DNA of 32,000 bases from Acidobacteria bacterium Mor1. GTDB lineage: Bacteria; Acidobacteriota; Polarisedimenticolia; Polarisedimenticolales; Polarisedimenticolaceae. The stretch spans positions 4,546,332 through 4,578,331 of the forward strand of contig CP011806.1 of NCBI GenBank assembly GCA_001664505.1, read 5' to 3'. Below the pieces are notes generated by a model. The model was given only the letters and a program-made list of their open reading frames with translations. It was not told the origin of the DNA and searched no databases. Shown here one piece after another: positions 5,317-18,100 of this stretch (positions are counted from its first letter, which is position 1; every line of letters starts with the position of its first letter). Both the position numbers and the translations under genes were made by a program.

Positions 5317-6285
5317 GTGGCAGGTATGGATCGACCGATTCCACTCATCATTCTCGGCGGTAGCGACCGGCGCGGGTCGGAGCTTCCCCCCGAGGGTGCG
5401 GACAAGCATGCGCTGTCCGGCTACAAGGGCGCCGAGATGCGCGTCGAGGGCCGGCCGTTGGTCGAGATCGTCGCCGAGCGGATGACCGCCGGCGGGGTGC
5501 TGGGACCCGTGCGCGTTGCGGGACCCGCCGAGGTGTATCGCCGCGCCGGCGTCAATCTCGGCGTGATCGACACCGACGACAGCTTCGGCGGCAACATCCA
5601 GGCCGCCATCGAGGCGACCCGGACCGAGTTCCCCGACTCACCGGTCGCGATCACCACCGCCGACATCCTGCCCGAGGTCGACGATGTAAAGCGCATGGTC
5701 GACGACTACCTGGCCGCCGCGCCGCTGGCATTCTGGGGCGCGTTCATTCGCACCCCGGAAGACCGTCAAGCCCTCGGAGCCTCGGCGTGGAAGCCCAGGT
5801 ACCGCATGGTGGAGCGGAAGGGGGAGGCGCCCGCGGCGATCCTGCCGGGGCATCTGGCCATCGTGTTGCCCCGGGCGCTCAAGTTGCGCTTTCTCTACGA
5901 CCTGGTGGACCTGACCTACCGCAGCCGCAACAAACCGATCGCCTACCGGCGTAGCTACATCGTGCGCGGGTTGATCTGGGGCATGCTGCTTCAGGATCTG
6001 CGGCATCTGGCCACCCTGCGGGTGCCCAACGTGACCTGGAACATGCTGCGCACCGGTCTCGCGGCGGCCAAGGGGCTCAAGGACGGCGACATCCTGTTGT
6101 CCGACCTGGAGCAGGCGATCGAGCGGATCTTCGTGCGTACCGAACATCGCCGGCGGCATCCGCACAGCGTGCGGCTACCGATTCTCGAGGGGCTCTCACT
6201 GGCCGAGGACATCGACACCGCCGAGGAGGCGGCGGAGAAGGGTGCCGAGGCGGGTGGCCCGATGCGGGATCAGAGCAGCTTGTAG
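5317..6285 (+). CDS. Nucleotidyltransferase-like (MobA/GT-A fold) N-terminal domain protein with an uncharacterised C-terminal half
   Basis: IPLIILGGSDRRG...GRPLVEIV...ITTADILP resembles NTP_transferase-type glycine-rich loop proteins. The start is either GTG 5317 or ATG 5326. I do not recognise the C-terminal 170 aa. Confidence 0.45.
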   Translation: MAGMDRPIPLIILGGSDRRGSELPPEGADKHALSGYKGAEMRVEGRPLVEIVAERMTAGGVLGPVRVAGPAEVYRRAGVNLGVIDTDDSFGGNIQAAIEATRTEFPDSPVAITTADILPEVDDVKRMVDDYLAAAPLAFWGAFIRTPEDRQALGASAWKPRYRMVERKGEAPAAILPGHLAIVLPRALKLRFLYDLVDLTYRSRNKPIAYRRSYIVRGLIWGMLLQDLRHLATLRVPNVTWNMLRTGLAAAKGLKDGDILLSDLEQAIERIFVRTEHRRRHPHSVRLPILEGLSLAEDIDTAEEAAEKGAEAGGPMRDQSSL

Positions 6286-7007
6286 CTCGCCGGGTCTGCC
6301 CGCAGGGTCAGCACGTCGCCGCGCCGTTCGACCTCGCCGTGGATCTCCACCGGCTCGGCGATCATCTCCAGCACCCGATCGTTGACCGCGTTCCCCTGCT
6401 CATCGACGAGGAACAGGTAGGAGAGTTCTCCGCTCTCGCTCTCCACCCGCAGCACCGGCGGGACGCCGCCGCGGATACAGAGGATCGCGCAGGCCTTGTG
6501 GGGCTTGCCCCGGCCCGGCTTCATCACGCCCAGGTGGCACTTGGAGTCGACAATCTCGCCGGTGAAGCTGAAGGTGCCGAGCTCCATCCCGCCGGCGAGG
6601 CTCTGCCGCGCATCCCCCAGGGGTTCCAGCTCGTGGACCTCGATCATCTGCTCCTGGTCGTTCCAGATCCGCGAGCCGGTGATGCGCACCCGTTTGCCGT
6701 CGTGTCCCGCGGTCAGGCTCTCGGCGCCGAACTTGCCGAAGGCGACCAGTAGATGGCTTCCCGGGTATTCCCCGTCGTCGACGACCAGCAGCGGGTAGGG
6801 GTGCTCCAGCAACACTCCCTCGAAGGTGCGGTCGATGCCGAACTCGAAGGCGCCAGGATCGAAGGGGGACTGTAGCGCCGCCAGCGCTCCGGCAACGCCG
6901 GCGGCCAGCAGCAGGATCAGCAGGATGCTTCGCTTGACGTGGGCGGCGATGCCCGCCGGAGCCTCGGGTAGGTAGCCGACGTAGAACTCGTCGTCGTTGT
7001 GGCTCAT
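6270..7007 (-). CDS. N-terminally TM-anchored exported protein with a conserved-looking Cys/His motif, unknown function (gene 4 of the redox cassette)
   Basis: The product starts MSHNDDEFYVGYL at ATG 7007, which forms an ATGA overlap with the upstream stop. It has one TM helix (SILLILLLAAGVAGALAAL). This is followed by about 200 aa of beta-rich-looking sequence containing DSKCHLGVMKPGRGKPHKACAILCIRGG. Confidence 0.6.
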   Translation of the reverse strand: MSHNDDEFYVGYLPEAPAGIAAHVKRSILLILLLAAGVAGALAALQSPFDPGAFEFGIDRTFEGVLLEHPYPLLVVDDGEYPGSHLLVAFGKFGAESLTAGHDGKRVRITGSRIWNDQEQMIEVHELEPLGDARQSLAGGMELGTFSFTGEIVDSKCHLGVMKPGRGKPHKACAILCIRGGVPPVLRVESESGELSYLFLVDEQGNAVNDRVLEMIAEPVEIHGEVERRGDVLTLRADPASYKLL

Positions 7008-8047
7008 GAGCTCCCTCGGATCGGTGCGGGTTCGGCCCGTTGCCCTGCAGGGTTCGGTTCCGGATCGACGTAGACCTCGCCGGAGACCACCCGCACGTTG
7101 AAGGTCGGGATCTTCTCGGTGAACGGCGGCGGCGACGCTCCCGTTTCGGGTTCGTACTGATAGCCGTGCCAGGGGCACGTGATGCAGCCGTCGACGATGC
7201 GGCCCTCGCCCAGCGGTCCGTTCTGGTGCTGACAGGCGTTACTGACCGCGGAGATCGTGTCTCCGTTGCGGAAGATCGCGACCCGTTCGCCGGAGATGCA
7301 GACGATCCGGGCCCGCTTGTCTTTGATATCGGCGACGGCGCAGGCGTGGAGGTAGCCGTCGATGACATCCCCCCGGTGCGGCGCGTCTCCCGGCTTCTCG
7401 CGGAAGCCGGCGACCAGATGCAGGGTGACGATCCAGCCGAAGCCGCCGACCAACAGGCCGATCAACACCAGGTTGCGTTCGGTCTGCAGGATCCCCAGCG
7501 CGACGTGGAGTACCAACAGCAGGTAGGCCACGTAGACCAGCATGTGCAGCGCTTTCCAGACCGGCGCCGACAGGTTGGCCAGCCAGAAGTCGTGACTGGT
7601 CGCCGCCATCAGGAACAGGATGCCGAGCGCGACGAAGCCGAGCGTCTGGAAGGGGAAGGCGCTGATGCTGGCGTACTGGGGGTTGCCTGCCAGCAGGCTG
7701 ACCAGCGGATTGACATCCCCCAGGGCGTGGAACTGGATCATCGAGAACGCGCCGTGGACCAGGGCGCAGAGGAACATGCTGACGCCCAGGTGGCGACGGT
7801 TGTAGAGCAGGGGCAAGAAACGCCGGTCCAGCCGGGCCAGCGGCCCGACCGACAGGATCACGTGGAGCATCAAGAGCGCCAGGGTGCCGAAGGCGCGGAT
7901 GATCAGGGTCTCGGGGGTCGCCTCAGGGCGCAATGCCGCGCCGAGCCCGACGAACAGGCCGATGTAGAGCAGGATGCCGGCGAGGATCGTCAGGTCGTAG
8001 CGCTTCTTCTGCCGGTTCCACAGGACCGCCTGATAACCCGCGCTCAT
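7004..8047 (-). CDS. Fusion protein: ferric-reductase-like (MsrQ/YedZ-type, putative heme b) 6-TM domain plus C-terminal Rieske [2Fe-2S] domain
   Basis: The N-terminal 210 aa has six hydrophobic helices with the RRHLGVSMFLCALVHGAF signature and further intramembrane His (LHVIL, QFHAL, LHMLV, LHVAL). The C-terminal domain has CQH and CPWHGYQY Rieske ligand motifs. There are ATGA overlaps at both ends. Confidence 0.7.
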   Translation of the reverse strand: MSAGYQAVLWNRQKKRYDLTILAGILLYIGLFVGLGAALRPEATPETLIIRAFGTLALLMLHVILSVGPLARLDRRFLPLLYNRRHLGVSMFLCALVHGAFSMIQFHALGDVNPLVSLLAGNPQYASISAFPFQTLGFVALGILFLMAATSHDFWLANLSAPVWKALHMLVYVAYLLLVLHVALGILQTERNLVLIGLLVGGFGWIVTLHLVAGFREKPGDAPHRGDVIDGYLHACAVADIKDKRARIVCISGERVAIFRNGDTISAVSNACQHQNGPLGEGRIVDGCITCPWHGYQYEPETGASPPPFTEKIPTFNVRVVSGEVYVDPEPNPAGQRAEPAPIRGSS

Positions 8048-8193
8048 GGAGCTTCCTCTTGAACCGCAGCGGGGATCGACTCGACCCGCGGGATCGGCCG
8101 GTCGCCGCTGAGCGCGACGAACAGCAGCACCCAGCCGATCAGGGCGATGGCCAGAAACATCATCCGGTGACGGCTGCGCAGGGGGCGAATCAT
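8044..8193 (-). CDS. Very small single-TM membrane protein (49 aa), gene 2 of the redox cassette
   Basis: The product is MIRPLRSRHRMMFLAIALIGWVLLFVALSG.... Its ATG 8193 overlaps the upstream stop (ATGA), and its stop overlaps the downstream ATG 8047 (ATGA). This double coupling argues that it is real. Confidence 0.5.
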   Translation of the reverse strand: MIRPLRSRHRMMFLAIALIGWVLLFVALSGDRPIPRVESIPAAVQEEAP

Positions 8194-8444
8194 CCGGCGC
8201 TCCCGCGGCGGTGAGCGGAACGCTCCACCGGTGGCTGCTTGCCGCCGGCCCAGCGCAGAAGCATCAGCGGCCACAGCGCGGCGACGCCGGGAAGGATCAT
8301 CACCCGGAAGCCCGGCTTGCTCCCCGGGGCCGCCGGGTCGACCCGGTTGACGCCGACCAGGACGAAGGCCACGGCGAACAGCAGGCCGATAGCGGCGTAG
8401 AGCACCAGCGCGTACGAGAACCAGAGAGCGATTTGTTCGAGCAT
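8190..8444 (-). CDS. Small 2-3 TM membrane protein (84 aa), gene 1 of the redox cassette
   Basis: ATG 8444 is preceded on the minus strand by AAGGAA. The hydrophobic product is MLEQIALWFSYALVLYAAIGLLFAVAFVLVG...ILPGVAALWPLMLL. Confidence 0.6.
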   Translation of the reverse strand: MLEQIALWFSYALVLYAAIGLLFAVAFVLVGVNRVDPAAPGSKPGFRVMILPGVAALWPLMLLRWAGGKQPPVERSAHRRGSAG

Positions 8445-8475
8445 GCTGATTCCTTGGCCTCCCGGGCTCGAGATG

Positions 8476-9171
8476 TTACCCGATTCGAGAACGTCGCCGG
8501 ACGCCCCACAGCACGGCGCCTGCGGTCGTCAGCGCCACCAGCAACAGCATGCCGGCGCCGTGAGAGGGGACCACGTGTCCCGCCTCGCCGAAGGGGCAGA
8601 TCAGGCGCCAGCAGGCATCGGCGAGCAGCGCCGCCGCCAGGCCGGCGAGGAGCCCTGCGCCGGCGGGCGCGGCGGGGAACCCCCGGGCCAGGATCAGTCC
8701 GGACCAGAGCGCGATCGGCAGGCCGAGGGCGAATTCGACGCCGAAGCAGAGGAAGCCCTCGGCGAGGCGTTTGTCCGCCGGCAGGCTCAAGGTCCCGGCC
8801 CGAGCGGTAAGGGTCATCGCGCATACGGCAATGAACACCGCCGAAGCGGTCAGCACCGAGATCCGTGCCGCCCGCAGTGCCGGCGCCGGGAGCGCGCCCC
8901 GCGCCGCACCGGCGAATAGCGGCAGGGCCATAGCGGCCTGGATCAGGGTCAAGCCCCAGAAGATCCACGGCCCGAGATCGGAGCGATCGGAACGGAGCCC
9001 CCAGCGGGAGGCCAGGACCGCGGCGCCCAGGCCCGCCAGGGCCAGCGCCCCCAGCAGCAGGGGAGCCAGCGGGCGCATCGGGGCCACCGGCTGCAGATCC
9101 TCGCGCAGCCGTTCGCGCAATGCGTCGAGCTCCGGCTTTCGATCATCGGCGGACACCCCCCGAGCGTACAC
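8476..9171 (-). CDS. NrsF-like (DUF1109 family) membrane anti-sigma factor candidate
   Basis: A short cytoplasmic N-terminus (...LRERLREDLQPVAP) is followed by about six TM helices. A Cys/His-containing segment (ADACWRLICPFGEAGHVVPSHG) lies near the C-terminus. This layout matches the anti-sigma partners of SigF-type ECF sigma factors. The start is GTG 9171 or GTG 9156. The gene ends 31 nt upstream of the next gene, which has its own SD. Confidence 0.5.
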   Translation of the reverse strand: MYARGVSADDRKPELDALRERLREDLQPVAPMRPLAPLLLGALALAGLGAAVLASRWGLRSDRSDLGPWIFWGLTLIQAAMALPLFAGAARGALPAPALRAARISVLTASAVFIAVCAMTLTARAGTLSLPADKRLAEGFLCFGVEFALGLPIALWSGLILARGFPAAPAGAGLLAGLAAALLADACWRLICPFGEAGHVVPSHGAGMLLLVALTTAGAVLWGVRRRSRIG

Positions 9172-9311
9172 CGATCCCGCTACGGGAAGCGCGGGATTCC
9201 AGCGCTTTTCGATCCCCGGGAATGAGCGAACGGGTCGCTCGGTTTACTGCACACGAACACGGCAGAGAACACGCCGGACGCCGGCGAGAAAAACGAATCG
9301 GAGGGAATAAA
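9172..9311. promoter_or_regulatory. Divergent control region between the nrsF-like operon (-) and doxX/ECF sigma (+)
   Basis: This is a 140-bp intergenic region between divergent starts. It contains hairpin ATCCCGC-N10-GCGGGAT (9174-9197), hairpin GAGCGA-N5-TCGCTC (9224-9240), and direct repeat GAACACGGC / GAACACGCC (9255-9263, 9267-9275). GGAAT pentamers face both directions (9219-9223 on +, 9200-9196 on -). I could not assign a promoter with confidence. Confidence 0.4.
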
Positions 9312-9728
9312 ATGAACCAGAAGACGATCAACATCACCAGTTGGGCACTGCGCATCGCCATCGCGGTCATCCTGCTTCAAACGCTGTTCTTCAAGTTCAC
9401 CGGCGCCCCCGAGTCGATCTACATCTTCGAGACCCTCGGCATGGAACCGTGGGGCCGCATCGGCAGCGGAATCGCCGAACTGATCGCCTCGGTGTTGCTG
9501 CTGGTTCCCCGGACCCGCATCTACGGTGTGTTGTTGTCCCTGGGCGTGATCGGCGGCGCCATCGTCAGCCACCTGACGACCCTCGGTATCGTCGTGCAGA
9601 ACGACGGCGGAACCCTGTTCGGTATGGCGCTCTTCATCTTCTTCGCCGATCTGGTTCTGTTGGCGCTGCACCGCTCGGAGCTCCCGGTGGTCGGCGCGCA
9701 CTTCGTGCCCTCTCATTCCCGCAGCTGA
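9312..9728 (+). CDS. DoxX family membrane protein
   Basis: ATG 9312 is preceded by GGAGGGA. The 138-aa, 4-TM product (...ILLQTLFFKFTGAPESIYIFETLGMEPWGRIGSGIAELIASVLLL...) is typical of the DoxX family. Confidence 0.75.
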   Translation: MNQKTINITSWALRIAIAVILLQTLFFKFTGAPESIYIFETLGMEPWGRIGSGIAELIASVLLLVPRTRIYGVLLSLGVIGGAIVSHLTTLGIVVQNDGGTLFGMALFIFFADLVLLALHRSELPVVGAHFVPSHSRS

Positions 9729-9769
9729 TTCCGGAACGAATCGCAAGGCTTCCGGAAGGAGGGGGAACG

Positions 9770-10327
9770 ATGAGCGACACGATCTGCGATCACCCGGTCG
9801 ATGAGCTCGAAGGGTTGATGCGCCGCTACCAGCAGGGAGATGCCGCGGCCTTCGACCGCATCTTCCGCTCGATGACCGGCACCCTGCGCGGCTACTTCCT
9901 GGCGCGGCGCCTGCTGCCCGAGAAGGCCGAGGACCTGGTGCAGGAGACCTTCCTGCAGATCCACCGGGCGCGGCACACCTATCAGCCCGGCCGGCCGGTG
10001 CGGCCCTGGTTCCTCGGAGTCGCCCGTCACGTCTATCTGATGGACCGCCGGGCGGCGGCTACCCTCAGCCGGCGCAACACCCAGCCCCTCGAGGGGGCAC
10101 CGGAGCCCGCGGTCGATCCGGCCCAGCTGAAGCTGGGCGATCGCCAGCGGGTCGGCCGCGCCGTATCCGGACTCAGCGAGGGAAACCGTCAGACGCTGCT
10201 GATGCACCACGTGTGGGGCATGAGCTTCAAGGAGGTCGCCACCGCGCTGGGGATTCGCGAGGGGGCGGCCAAGGTGCGCTCCCACCGTGCGCTGCGGGAT
10301 CTGCGTCTCGCGCTGGAGGAGAGCTGA
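9770..10327 (+). CDS. ECF (sigma-70 family, group 4) RNA polymerase sigma factor
   Basis: ATG 9770 is preceded by GGAAGGAGGGGG. Region 2 (AEDLVQETFLQIHRARHTY...RPWFLGVARHVYLMDRR) and region 4 (LSEGNRQTLLMHHVWGMSFKEVATALGIREGAAKVRSHRAL) are both recognisable. Confidence 0.85.
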   Translation: MSDTICDHPVDELEGLMRRYQQGDAAAFDRIFRSMTGTLRGYFLARRLLPEKAEDLVQETFLQIHRARHTYQPGRPVRPWFLGVARHVYLMDRRAAATLSRRNTQPLEGAPEPAVDPAQLKLGDRQRVGRAVSGLSEGNRQTLLMHHVWGMSFKEVATALGIREGAAKVRSHRALRDLRLALEES

Positions 10328-10385
10328 CCGCCGGTCGCCGGCTTCCCGCCGGCCGCTCATGAACCATCCGGGCTAGACTGCGGCG

Positions 10386-11423
10386 ATGGACGAGATCCCG
10401 ACCCGCCGCATCTACGCCGAGCGCCTCAACCGCGTCCTCGACTACATCGCCGCCAACCTCGAAGGGGATCTCTCCCTCGAGAGCCTGGCACAGGTCGCGT
10501 GTTTTTCGCCCTATCACTTCCACCGGCTGTTCAAGGGCGCCTTCGGCGAGACCGTCCACCAGCACGTGCAGCGCCAGCGCCTGGAACGATCCGCCCGGCT
10601 GCTCAAGTCGGCACCGGATCGCACCGCCACCGAAATCGCTCTCGAGGTCGGCTACCCCGGACTGTCTGAGTTCTCCCGGGCGTTCAAGAAACACTTCGGC
10701 ACCAGCCCCGGTGCGTGGGACCGGGTCACGCCGCTGCCGAACAGCAAGATCTGCCAAGCGCCGGAACCCTTCCCCCGGTACGATCCCGCCGAACTGGCCG
10801 AGATCGAGGCCAGGCAGGAGTTCCGGATTCGTATGAAGACCTTTCCCCGCAGCCGCTTCGCCTTCTTCAGGGTGCACGACGCCTACGGCAATCAGCGCCT
10901 GGTGGATGCCTACACCCAGTTGATTGCCTGGCTCGGCAGTCAGGGGTTGGGCTACCGGGACGTGGTGATCGCCGGGATGAGCCAGGACGACCCCGAGGTC
11001 ACGCCGCCGGAGAAGTGCCGCTACGACATGGGCGCCCTGTGGCCGCTGGACCTGGACCTCGAGTCCGCCGACCCGCTGGCCGACGCCGGTGTGCTGGGCG
11101 GGCTCTTGTCCGAGCGCGGTCCGGACGCCGCGGCATTGTCCCGCACGTCGCGGGCGGTCGAGGCCTGGCGCCCCGGGGGAACGCCCCTTGCCGAGGGGAT
11201 GTCTTTCCGTGATTTCGACGCCTGCCCCGCCGCCTGCATGTACCTGGGCGGCGCTCTCGATCTGTTCGACCGGGCCTATCAGTTCCTGTTCCGGCACTGG
11301 CTCCCCGAGAGCCGCTACATGCCGGCGGACCTACCCGGGATGGAACTCTTCCGCCGGGTGCCCGAGGAGATCGGCTGGGAGACCTTCGATATCGAGAGCG
11401 TGCTGCCGCTGGCGGCACCCTAG
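10386..11423 (+). CDS. AraC family transcriptional regulator with C-terminal GyrI-like effector-binding domain
   Basis: The N-terminal double HTH reads [25 protein letters not shown]...[31 protein letters not shown]. The C-terminal half ([18 protein letters not shown]...[18 protein letters not shown]) resembles a GyrI/Rob-type ligand domain. Confidence 0.8.
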
Positions 11424-11457
11424 ACCTGCCCCCCCAAGGGGGCACTGCGGAGAGATC

Positions 11458-11811
11458 ATGGAACTGGGTCAGTTTTCGGTGAGTTTGACGGTCAAGGATC
11501 TGCCCGCCTCGCGGGAGTTCTACAAGAAGCTCGGCTTCAGCGTGGTGACGCTGTCCCACGATCCCGAGGCGTTTCCCGGCTACGACGAGAGCTGGGTGAT
11601 CCTGGAGAACGGTCCGGTCAAGGTCGGCCTGTTCCAGGGGATGTTCGACAAGAACATGCTGACCTTCAACCCCACCGACGTGCGGTCGATTCAGGCCTCG
11701 CTCAAGGAGCAAGGGGTCGCCTTCATCAAAGAGGCCGAGCCCGGAGACGGACCGGCATCGGCGATGCTTCTTGACCCGGACGAGAACCCGATCCTGCTGG
11801 ATCAGCACTGA
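11458..11811 (+). CDS. VOC (glyoxalase/bleomycin-resistance/dioxygenase) family protein
   Basis: ATG 11458 is preceded by GGAGAG. The 117-aa product is [27 protein letters not shown]...[13 protein letters not shown], a typical single-domain VOC protein. Confidence 0.75.
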
Positions 11812-16924: not shown

Positions 16925-17306
16925 GGACGGCCTGGCTCTCGAGTGGTTGCCCGGCGAACTCGCCGTGGTGCGGCTCGGCGCGTCGGATCCGCTGCCCGAA
17001 TGGGCCCTACGCGGCCTGGTTCACGGTATGGTGCGCACTCCCGACGAGTTGTCCATCGTCTGCGCCGCGGCAGAGGTGCCCCATGAGGTGCAGGCCGAGC
17101 GGGGTTGGCGCCTGTTGCGGGTGCGTGGCCCCCTTCAGTTCGACCTGACCGGAATCCTGGCCTCGTTGACCGGCCCGTTGGCCGCCGCCGGAGTGCCGAT
17201 CTTTTCGATCTCGACCTTCGACACCGACTACCTGATGATCCGTGCCGCCGACGCCTCCCGGGCGACCGAAGCGTTGAGCCGAGCCGGACACCGTTTCGAC
17301 GAGTAG
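16911..17306 (+). CDS. ACT domain-containing protein (ACT_7-like)
   Basis: LAVVRLGASDPLPEWA...ELSIVCAA...WRLLRVRGPLQFDLTGILASLTGPLAAAGVPIFSISTFDTDYLMI matches small stand-alone ACT proteins. The gene overlaps folA by 14 nt. Confidence 0.7.
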   Translation: MSVAEDGLALEWLPGELAVVRLGASDPLPEWALRGLVHGMVRTPDELSIVCAAAEVPHEVQAERGWRLLRVRGPLQFDLTGILASLTGPLAAAGVPIFSISTFDTDYLMIRAADASRATEALSRAGHRFDE

Positions 17307-17311
17307 CCCCT

Positions 17312-18100
17312 ATGTGTCTGATCGCCGTCGCTCACCAGGCGAGCCCCCGCTACCGGTTGGTCGTCGCGGCCAATCGGGATGAGTTCCACCAGCGGCCCAC
17401 CCGTGAGGCGCGTTTCTGGGGCGTGTACCCCAGTTTGCTGGCCGGGAAGGACCTGGAAGGTGGAGGGACCTGGATGGGGGTCTCCCGGGACGGCCGGGTC
17501 GCCGCCATCACCAACTTCCGCGAACCGGGCAAGAGTCGCAGCGACGCCGTCTCCCGGGGGCTGCTGGTGCGGGACTTCCTCACCGGGAATGCGGGGCCGC
17601 TGGACTACGTCCAGCAGGTCACCCTGGAAGAACAGGAATTCAACGGGTTCTCGCTGCTGGCCTTTCAGGGCGAAGAGCTGGCCTGGATCTCCAACCGCCA
17701 TCCCGGCGCCGGGGCGCTGGCCCCGGGCATCTACGGGTTGAGCAACGCAGTGCTGGATACTCCGTGGCCCAAGGTCTGCCGCCTCAAGGACCGCCTGGAA
17801 ACCCTGGTGAGCCGGGACGAGCCGTTGGACGCCGAGTCGGTCTTCGCGGCCCTGGCCGACCGGGTCACCCCCGACGACGCCGATCTGCCCGAGACCGGCG
17901 TGGGGCTGGAGCGGGAGCGGGTGCTCTCGCCGGTCTTCATCGACACCCCCCAGTACGGCACCCGGTGCTCGACCCTGGTGACCATCGACTACGACGGGCG
18001 GCTGACCTTCATCGAACGCAGCTACGGACCCGCCGCAGCGCCCCTGGGCGAGGTTCGCTTCGATTTCCGCATCGAGTCCCAACGGGAGGCGACACCGTGA
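17312..18100 (+). CDS. NRDE family protein (TANGO2 / DUF833 homolog)
   Basis: The N-terminus MCLIAVAHQASPRYRLVVAANRDEF contains the N-terminal Cys and the eponymous NRDE motif. ...GGTWMGV...ITNFRE... is consistent with this family. Confidence 0.8.
   Translation: MCLIAVAHQASPRYRLVVAANRDEFHQRPTREARFWGVYPSLLAGKDLEGGGTWMGVSRDGRVAAITNFREPGKSRSDAVSRGLLVRDFLTGNAGPLDYVQQVTLEEQEFNGFSLLAFQGEELAWISNRHPGAGALAPGIYGLSNAVLDTPWPKVCRLKDRLETLVSRDEPLDAESVFAALADRVTPDDADLPETGVGLERERVLSPVFIDTPQYGTRCSTLVTIDYDGRLTFIERSYGPAAAPLGEVRFDFRIESQREATP

Follow-up and report, generated by a model that had tools for sequence, protein, structure and literature searches.

Gene organization of the locus

The locus described here contains a split pair of regulatory genes, encoding an extracytoplasmic function (ECF) sigma factor and an NrsF/DUF1109-type anti-sigma factor, which are located on opposite strands of the Acidobacteria bacterium Mor1 genome and embedded among membrane redox genes. 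The window, meaning the whole stretch of DNA that was analyzed, is 32,000 nt long and covers positions 4,546,332 to 4,578,331 of contig CP011806.1 (assembly GCA_001664505.1). The window's genome (G000) is one contig of 5.99 Mb with 67% G+C content and is 99.98% complete. A metagenome-assembled genome (MAG) of the same genus (G001), which was assembled independently and is 91% complete, was compared with it. The coordinates and features reported by the initial annotation were all correct when they were re-checked, and they are collected in Table 1.

Table 1. Genes and intergenic regions of the split sigma/anti-sigma locus (positions in the window; TM, transmembrane)
Feature	Position	Strand	Length	Basis
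Membrane-anchored exported protein with Cys/His cluster, final gene of the cassette	6270–7007	-	245 aa	Hydropathy
Ferric-reductase-like (MsrQ/YedZ-type) heme domain::Rieske [2Fe-2S] fusion	7004–8047	-	347 aa	PF01794, PF00355
Single-TM protein	8044–8193	-	49 aa	ATGA overlap at each end; hydropathy
Two-TM protein, gene 1 of the cassette	8190–8444	-	84 aa	Hydropathy; homologues ahead of FRD-Rieske genes
Spacer between nrsF and the 84-aa gene	8445–8475	-	31 nt	AAGGA ribosome-binding site; no terminator
NrsF/DUF1109-type anti-sigma factor	8476–9171	-	231 aa	PF06532; six TM segments
Divergent control region	9172–9311		exactly 140 bp	G000/G001 alignment
DoxX-superfamily membrane protein	9312–9728	+	138 aa	DoxX_2/MauE scores just under cut-offs
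ECF sigma factor, NrsF-linked (ECF16-like) clade	9770–10327	+	185 aa	Regions 2 and 4; tree
AraC-family regulator with GyrI-like ligand-binding domain	10386–11423	+		Pfam

On the minus strand, nrsF is followed by a cassette of four genes that are chained by ATGA stop/start overlaps (8190–8193, 8044–8047, and 7004–7007). The cassette is named here after its ferric-reductase-like domain (FRD)::Rieske fusion gene. As the initial annotation had described, nrsF ends 31 nt before the next gene, which has its own ribosome-binding site. AAGGA precedes the ATG at 8444, no terminator-like site was found in the spacer, and the spacer is nearly identical in G001. On the plus strand, the DoxX-like gene, the sigma gene, and the AraC-family gene are probably carried on one transcript. 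The sigma gene had also been called the only ECF sigma gene, which is true for the neighborhood but not for the genome, where about 36 are present.

The araC gene follows the sigma gene in all three representatives (the window, L007, and L063:959–1120), with spacers of 58, about 45, and 20 nt, respectively, and the TAGACTnCGGCG motif is kept directly before the araC ATG. Co-transcription of doxX-sigma-araC would add a second, ligand-sensing regulator to the unit of the sigma factor.

Identity of the NrsF-type protein

The 231-aa protein had been proposed to be a DUF1109 (NrsF-type) protein. The PF06532 profile matched it at 34.8 bits (cut-off 26.8) over model positions 2–196 of 204, and a six-frame search of the G000 genome found this PF06532 match only. 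Hydrophobic segments were located at about residues 35–53, 70–88, 104–122, 136–165, 165–183, and 206–224, after approximately 34 cytoplasmic N-terminal residues, by a simple Kyte-Doolittle hydropathy scan, which is crude and not a dedicated topology predictor.

The conserved residues were examined in an alignment of 31 sequences, comprising 29 NrsF proteins of the phylum, the window protein, and the G001 copy. The window NrsF retained every invariant or near-invariant position (V29, P31, R60, D62, P95, C142, C192, H199, and H204), and the N-terminal L-x-P-V-x-P segment was present. C142 occurred in 31 of the 31 sequences and C192 in 29. The cysteine pair of NrsF matters in Caulobacter (C131 and C181; PMC3511200) and in Brucella AbcS (PMC8315932). 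Judged by position in the family alignment, which does not include the Caulobacter sequence, C142 and C192 probably correspond to C131 and C181.

Codons 1–7 of nrsF are identical in DNA sequence to those of G001, and from codon 9 the differences are mostly synonymous. Because of the identity of codons 1–7, the start codon is taken to be GTG at 9171 or GTG at 9156. A TTG at codon 18 was excluded as a start, being CTA in G001. The G+C content at third codon positions (GC3) of nrsF is 0.84. Owing to the low complexity of the protein, no more than 3 homologues came back from a word-indexed search with NrsF, and Pfam-based genome searches replaced it for finding NrsF loci.

Probable pairing of the sigma factor with NrsF

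The sigma factor consists of regions 2 and 4 only (PF04542 and PF08281) and scored 60.5 bits against TIGR02937 (cut-off 42.9). It shares at most about 34% identity with its paralogues in G000, 30–50% with sigma factors encoded directly upstream of nrsF in other Acidobacteriota, and 55–56% with the metagenomic sigma factors P0131 and P0132, each of which precedes an NrsF gene. In a maximum likelihood tree, the sigma factors of the window, G001, and L063 (79% identical, from a metagenome) formed a clade with 100/100 support. This trio was nested within a larger clade (100/98), in which each of the 22 remaining sigma factors is encoded directly upstream of nrsF. The 32 own-genome ECF paralogues that were placed in the tree all fell outside this clade. 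The tree and the identity to nrsF-linked sigma factors thus agree with the ECF16-like assignment that had been expected, and membership of ECF16 itself is suggested by the tree together with the promoter consensus of the relatives.

The NrsF tree gave the same placement. The window NrsF fell inside the corresponding 25-member clade (97/97) and was sister (92/83) to the NrsF proteins of the P0131 and P0132 loci, whose sigma factors are also the nearest to the window sigma factor. The stems were long in both trees, at 1.68 for NrsF and 0.74 for the sigma factor. Since the placements coincide and both stems are long, the simplest reading is that the two genes descend from one canonical sigma->nrsF operon and continued to co-evolve after their separation. 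The two proteins are very probably a cognate pair, and the congruent trees lend indirect support to binding and inhibition of this sigma factor by the window NrsF.

The NrsF-like protein might instead have been co-opted as a membrane subunit of the FRD::Rieske complex, or as an assembly or sensor component for it, leaving the sigma factor as an orphan that is regulated otherwise. The Pfam score, 34.7 bits in the comparison across the phylum, which is among the lowest of the above-cut-off matches in the phylum (most are 50–113 bits), would suit such a change of role, as would the very long NrsF stem and the apparent co-transcription of nrsF with membrane redox genes 31 nt away. However, the protein has kept its L-x-P-V-x-P segment and every invariant Cys, His, Arg, Asp, and Pro, and the partner-type sigma gene has stayed within 600 bp of nrsF in both sequenced species of the genus. 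The stem of the sigma factor is long as well, and its sister group is the same, as would be expected of co-evolving partners. The cassette also works without NrsF in the 30 other loci examined. Co-option is accordingly a quite improbable explanation in our judgment, and the two genes are treated below as partners.

Rarity and conservation of the split arrangement

The sigma gene was immediately upstream of nrsF on the same strand in all 29 loci of the phylum with readable sequence upstream of nrsF. The same canonical order was found in six more (G019, the P0131 and P0132 contigs, and three metagenome contigs). In the window, nrsF is on the strand opposite to the sigma gene and is separated from it by 140 bp and the doxX gene. 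The split had been suspected to be exceptional, and with about 35 other NrsF loci all showing sigma->nrsF on one strand, this is the case.

The full split was seen only in G000 and G001. The comparison of synteny in relatives that had been proposed showed all ten flanking genes of G001 in the G000 order, with 82–98% amino-acid identity. The short metagenome contig L063, in which the upstream sequence is missing from the assembly, keeps the sigma arm (doxX-sigma-araC). Since an independent MAG has identical synteny, the split is not an assembly artefact. It is real, rare, and stable across species-level divergence.

An artefact of assembly or annotation, or a chance NrsF match on an Ala/Leu/Gly-rich membrane open reading frame (ORF), was also considered. 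The low complexity of the protein and the 3 homologues from the word-based search would be expected in that case. On the other hand, the genome is a nearly complete single contig, the synteny is identical in the independent MAG, and the profile match spans almost the whole model with the signature residues conserved. The GC3 value and the mostly synonymous substitutions against G001 also speak for a genuine coding sequence. An artefact is hardly credible, and it is effectively refuted already by the synteny, the substitution pattern, and the signature residues.

The redox module

The fusion protein of the cassette matched PF01794 at 54.9 bits and PF00355 at 55.1 bits. Its match to the NCBIfam MsrQ model (NF003831) was partial, at 37 bits against a cut-off of 130. 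The operon has no MsrP-like gene, the heme domain being fused to a Rieske domain instead. Thus, the fusion may work like MsrQ, yet the locus is no MsrPQ system. Homologues of the fusion number at least 8000 (E <= 1e-10), with 64–95% identity for the 120 best listed. The cassette is very widespread, and nrsF does not usually precede it. Homologues of the 84-aa protein (41–61% identical) lie ahead of FRD-Rieske genes in many phyla, a gene of approximately 45 aa occupies the position of the 49-aa gene in L010, and the 245-aa protein follows FRD-Rieske in every examined related locus that extends past that gene.

The DoxX-like protein scored just under the cut-offs of DoxX_2 (24.0 bits against 26.3) and MauE (23.4 against 27). 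Its homologue in L010, which is 70% identical, is recorded as PF13564 DoxX_2, and the protein is most safely assigned to the DoxX superfamily. The family is 58–76% identical across Acidobacteriota, Verrucomicrobiota, Planctomycetota, Bacteroidota, and others (at least six phyla). In 17 of the 79 other loci, the DoxX-like gene and the cassette were at most 6 kb apart, either in tandem or divergently oriented, and nrsF or a related sigma gene was present in none of these 17. In approximately one quarter of loci (L010, L136, and L074–L142), the DoxX-like family occurs in linkage with the FRD::Rieske cassette or with Rieske-GltS/Rieske-TPP genes. This linkage suggests that the DoxX-like protein is an accessory subunit of the module and not a bufferin-type DoxX.

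The full module is present in L010, in the order doxX / Rieske-GltS, Rieske-TPP, 97 aa, 45 aa, FRD::Rieske, and 251 aa. Among the same-family genomes that lack NrsF (G004, G005, G009, and G010), Rieske-GltS adjoins the cassette in 4/4 and Rieske-TPP in 3/4. In G000, Rieske-GltS (544 aa) and Rieske-TPP (657 aa) are located at genome positions 3800696–3804327, 750 kb from the cassette. No orthologue of the region upstream of Rieske-GltS was found in G001, a MAG of 91% completeness. Judged by gene order, the DoxX-like gene, the cassette, and Rieske-GltS/TPP form one module across phyla. On the same grounds, nrsF takes in this genus the place held elsewhere by Rieske-GltS/TPP, and the sigma and araC genes are appended behind doxX.

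The distant Rieske-GltS/TPP genes of G000 (region 3800038–3804327) are divergent from a gene for a 158-aa membrane protein without a Pfam match.

Promoter evidence on possible control of the module

The reading we favor, and regard as likely, is that a SigF/NrsF-type (ECF16-like) pair from an ordinary operon was split into both arms of a pre-existing divergent module and controls it. The promoters of relatives and the intergenic regions of the module bear on such control.

In 23 canonical relatives, the element (T/C)G(T/A)AACC-N16-C(A/G)(A/T)A was found upstream of the sigma gene, mostly 30–50 nt before the start codon. It agrees with the published ECF16 consensus (PMC3511200, PMC8315932), and the ECF16 promoter (T/C)GTAAC-N17-CGAA fronts its own operon and its targets (PMC8315932). 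A matrix was made from the 23 related promoters, for which true sites score 12–23 bits, and the window was scanned at spacers of 15–17 nt.

Outside the window, two sites link the switch to the module. In G159, which belongs to another family of the phylum, Rieske-GltS -> Rieske-TPP and a canonical sigma->nrsF pair diverge from each other, with the cassette 8.6 kb off. The intergenic region contains a 21.8-bit ECF16-type site, CTGTAACC-N16-CAAATGG, which points at Rieske-GltS/TPP. In G000, the 181 nt ahead of the displaced Rieske-GltS contain a 12.3-bit site, ACGTAACG-N16-CAGATAA, at 3800578. There are 150 matrix matches of at least 12.3 bits in G000 on both strands, giving p of approximately 0.002 for that strand and that 181-nt region, and this is the best a-priori site in the genome. 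No site of at least 12 bits was found upstream of Rieske-GltS in the same-family genomes without the sigma gene, and the unrelated control L012 had a site of 12.7 bits there. By these putative promoters, the link between an ECF16-type switch and the module is seen twice (G159 and G000) and is not general.

The initial annotation had proposed that the cassette and the DoxX-like gene are the dedicated regulon of the sigma factor. The association of the module across phyla and the 21.8-bit promoter at Rieske-GltS in G159 support the proposal of a regulon indirectly, but no ECF16-type site is detectable in the 140 bp between its two arms. Furthermore, "dedicated" is too strong, since the best site, at 12.3 bits, belongs to Rieske-GltS/TPP, 750 kb away.

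In the 140-bp spacer, blocks common to G000 and G001 are ATCCCG (9174–9179), ATTCC (9196–9200), GGGAATG (9218–9224), and CGGTTTAC (9240–9247), and variable 16-nt stretches separate them. In one reading, the blocks make up two GGAAT-N16-CGG(G/T)(A/T)T elements that face outward, toward nrsF and doxX, respectively. Alternatively, the right-hand pair can be read as GTAAACC-N16-CATTCC toward nrsF. Two hairpins that had been candidates (9174–9197 and 9224–9240) were rejected. Their stems are broken without compensation in G001 and the flanking blocks are kept, and these regions were therefore read as promoter spacers rather than structures. No sigma-70-like promoter was predicted across 6000–11600. 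The local promoters look ECF-like in architecture and are not assignable to the window sigma factor.

Several results weigh against control of the adjacent genes by this pair. No ECF16-type site was found in 8900–9800, where the matrix stayed below 2 bits at the 16/17-nt spacings of the family; the single match in this region, at 9441, scored 5.2 bits with a 15-nt spacer and lies inside doxX. The closest look-alike, GTAAACC-N16-CATTCC on the minus strand (9247–9219) was rejected as an ECF16 site, its matrix score being -2.3 because the invariant -35 G and -10 A are missing. The sigma factor retains the conserved region-2 and region-4 residues of its clade, and therefore a changed promoter specificity is not evident. 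The spacer blocks, being readable either way, could serve any of the other approximately 35 ECF sigma factors or the adjacent AraC regulator. The GGAAT-N16-CGG pattern was defined post hoc and occurs nine times genome-wide against about six by chance (our own estimate). Only two genomes cover the spacer, which makes footprinting weak. Finally, no ECF16-type site was found ahead of the full-length Rieske-GltS orthologue in five further NrsF-positive genomes, the strong site being found in G159 alone.

The same results bear on the alternative that the pair is cognate and functional and that the adjacent genes became its neighbors by rearrangement only. Those genes would then have housekeeping, AraC-dependent, or other-ECF promoters, and the real targets would be elsewhere, for example Rieske-GltS/TPP at 3.80 Mb. 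This would account for a spacer without an ECF16-type site, for the best a-priori site of the genome being upstream of Rieske-GltS/TPP, and for DNA-contact regions of the sigma factor that are as in its clade; the AraC/GyrI regulator conserved in the sigma unit could supply another means of control. Nevertheless, each of the two regulator genes sits within a unit of a single module whose linkage extends across phyla, and the target named by this alternative belongs to that module anyway. No sigma-70-like promoter was predicted around the locus, and the spacer has conserved ECF-style AAT/CGG two-part blocks with variable spacers. Rearrangement alone is somewhat unlikely in our view, and control of the module by the split pair is preferred. 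That at least one of the two local units is sigma-dependent is put forward tentatively, as slightly short of probable.

Further sequence elements were recorded beside these sites. In G159 (L057:10879–11148), the stretch from the 21.8-bit promoter to the Rieske-GltS start contains a 20-aa ORF, MTLGVTIIHRSQLPVIGSKP, which has a good ribosome-binding site and may encode a leader peptide or a small member of the regulon. Approximately 40 nt upstream of Rieske-GltS in the NrsF-positive genomes G164 and G106, GTAAACG (L161) and GTAAACC-N16-CAGT (L162), respectively, were found, which share an odd -35 variant with GTAAACC-N16-CATT of the window. They could hint at a variant promoter class, though they are too near the start codon to judge. 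In the window, a GC hairpin (CGCCGG-ACG-CCGGCG, then AGAAAA; 9272–9286) in the leader of the DoxX-like gene is kept in G001, and ACGAATCG recurs 12–25 nt upstream of the doxX and sigma start codons in both genomes.

Two genome-wide searches gave no usable regulon. The top matches of the ECF16 matrix precede unrelated genes (for a Na/H exchanger, a TolC-like OEP, and an enoyl-CoA hydratase) or overlap a stop codon, and they form no coherent regulon. The GGAAT-N16-CGG pattern was dropped as a regulon motif at the count given above. Two of its nine matches stand back to back in the spacer, and two look intergenic with extended similarity. Of the latter two, one falls within the 5' end of a gene on the minus strand, and the other precedes a sigma-70-family gene, where it is uninformative because the flanks are about 98% conserved.

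Proposed mechanism and circuit

The proposed mechanism is modelled on Caulobacter SigF/NrsF, Bradyrhizobium EcfF/OsrA, Azospira SigF/NrsF, and Brucella BcrS/AbcS (PMC3511200, PMC3420878, PMC4436054, PMC8315932). In the locus, nrsF heads the nrsF-84aa-49aa-FRD::Rieske-245aa transcription unit, and the sigma gene is on the other strand, after the DoxX-like gene and before the AraC/GyrI regulator. NrsF would sequester the sigma factor at the membrane via its short N-terminal segment. An envelope oxidant, a chlorine species, or a thiol-reactive metal might be sensed by periplasm-facing Cys/His residues, leading to release of the sigma factor. The released sigma factor would raise expression of the DoxX-like gene, the FRD::Rieske cassette, and the distant Rieske-GltS/Rieske-TPP genes. 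With nrsF on the output transcript, a negative feedback separate from sigma synthesis would result. The supply of anti-sigma factor would track the output because nrsF rides on the output transcript. Binding of the sigma factor by NrsF and the nature of the signal are both conditional steps of this scheme, and the dependence of the two local transcripts on the sigma factor is the most conditional of all.

The consequences differ with that dependence. If both local units were sigma-dependent, positive feedback (doxX-sigma-araC) and negative feedback (nrsF-cassette) would be carried on separate transcripts. If only the nrsF unit were, the level of anti-sigma factor would follow the output. If neither were, the pair would control the distant Rieske-GltS/TPP genes and the adjacency would be historical. 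Therefore, the description of the locus as an unusual feedback wiring is apt only if the nrsF operon depends on the window sigma factor.

The split could also be an adaptive rewiring, with the anti-sigma gene only on the output transcript, the sigma gene on a second output transcript together with araC, and GGAAT-N16-CGG(G/T)(A/T)T as the diverged promoter of a fast-evolving sigma factor. We consider this specific form unlikely. If it were true, the locus would be a natural circuit with separately tunable positive and negative feedback, and the module would be under envelope oxidative-stress control, which would point to its function.

Comparison with known systems and significance

The established picture of SigF/NrsF (ECF16) systems is a compact sigma->anti-sigma operon with a textbook promoter, and the known ECF16 regulons counter envelope damage by hypochlorite, reactive oxygen, copper, or chromate.

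The locus resembles the ECF16 prototype, SigF-NrsF of Caulobacter crescentus/vibrioides (CC3253-CC3252), in having an ECF sigma factor and a six-TM DUF1109 anti-sigma factor with two conserved cysteines, and in the DoxX-family gene and membrane or periplasmic redox genes of its divergent neighborhood; the divergent buf1 operon of Caulobacter ends in DoxX (PMC3511200; doi 10.1101/2024.03.18.585515). In Caulobacter, however, sigF comes first, nrsF is co-transcribed with it, and GTAACC-N16-CGAA promoters front every unit of the regulon (PMC3511200; doi 10.1101/2024.03.18.585515). The window pair is instead on opposite strands, each gene in a putative target unit, and the local sequence shows no detectable promoter of this type. 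Furthermore, the DoxX-like gene of the window is outside any bufferin (DUF2282/MNIO/DUF2063) cluster.

The SigF/NrsF pair of Azospira suillum (yedY1-yedZ1-mrpX) and the BcrS/AbcS pair of Brucella melitensis (bcrXQP) are similar in another respect, being ECF16 pairs beside a divergent operon with an MsrQ/YedZ-type heme-b protein (PMC4436054, PMC8315932). Their role is defence against envelope oxidants, and in their operons MsrQ is accompanied by the molybdoenzyme MsrP and by a Met-rich decoy peptide (PMC4436054, PMC8315932). In contrast, the MsrQ-like domain of the window forms one protein with a cytoplasmic Rieske domain and is partnered by two mini-proteins and the 245-aa exported Cys/His protein, no MsrP is encoded in the locus, and the anti-sigma gene is inside the redox operon.

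The canonical operons of Acidobacteriota (P0131/P0132, G291, G197, and G159) share the sigma clade and the NrsF clade with the window. Unlike the window, all of these canonical loci have nrsF immediately after the sigma gene, and most have (T/C)G(T/A)AACC-N16-C(A/G)(A/T)A 30–50 nt upstream of the sigma gene.

Published ECF16 regulons repeatedly include MsrQ-type heme proteins and a DoxX protein (PMC3511200, PMC4436054, PMC8315932, doi 10.1101/2024.03.18.585515), with Caulobacter providing the DoxX case (doi 10.1101/2024.03.18.585515). These two protein types also flank the switch in the window.

The analysis upholds the pairing and the rare layout, and the regulon and the feedback wiring stand as proposals. 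A stable natural split of the pair into opposite putative target transcripts is a useful exception for the study of stoichiometry and feedback in ECF switches and for ECF pairs in synthetic biology. The switch is attached to a conserved, unstudied membrane electron-transfer gene set and hints at the purpose of this set, and G159, as a second lineage, independently supports the association of switch and module. The stresses known for ECF16 regulons, together with this association, therefore give concrete stress conditions in which a phenotype of the gene set can be sought. The main value of the locus is this functional lead for a widespread uncharacterised redox module.

Other observations in the window

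The 245-aa protein (6270–7007) gave a weak, sub-threshold DUF5818 match over its Cys/His region (20.7 bits, cut-off 27). A TANGO2/NRDE-family gene is located at 17105–18100 on the plus strand, 9 kb from the cassette. A gene of this family also lies 2 kb from the cassette in the unrelated genome L011 (L011:9207–9944), which may be a coincidence.

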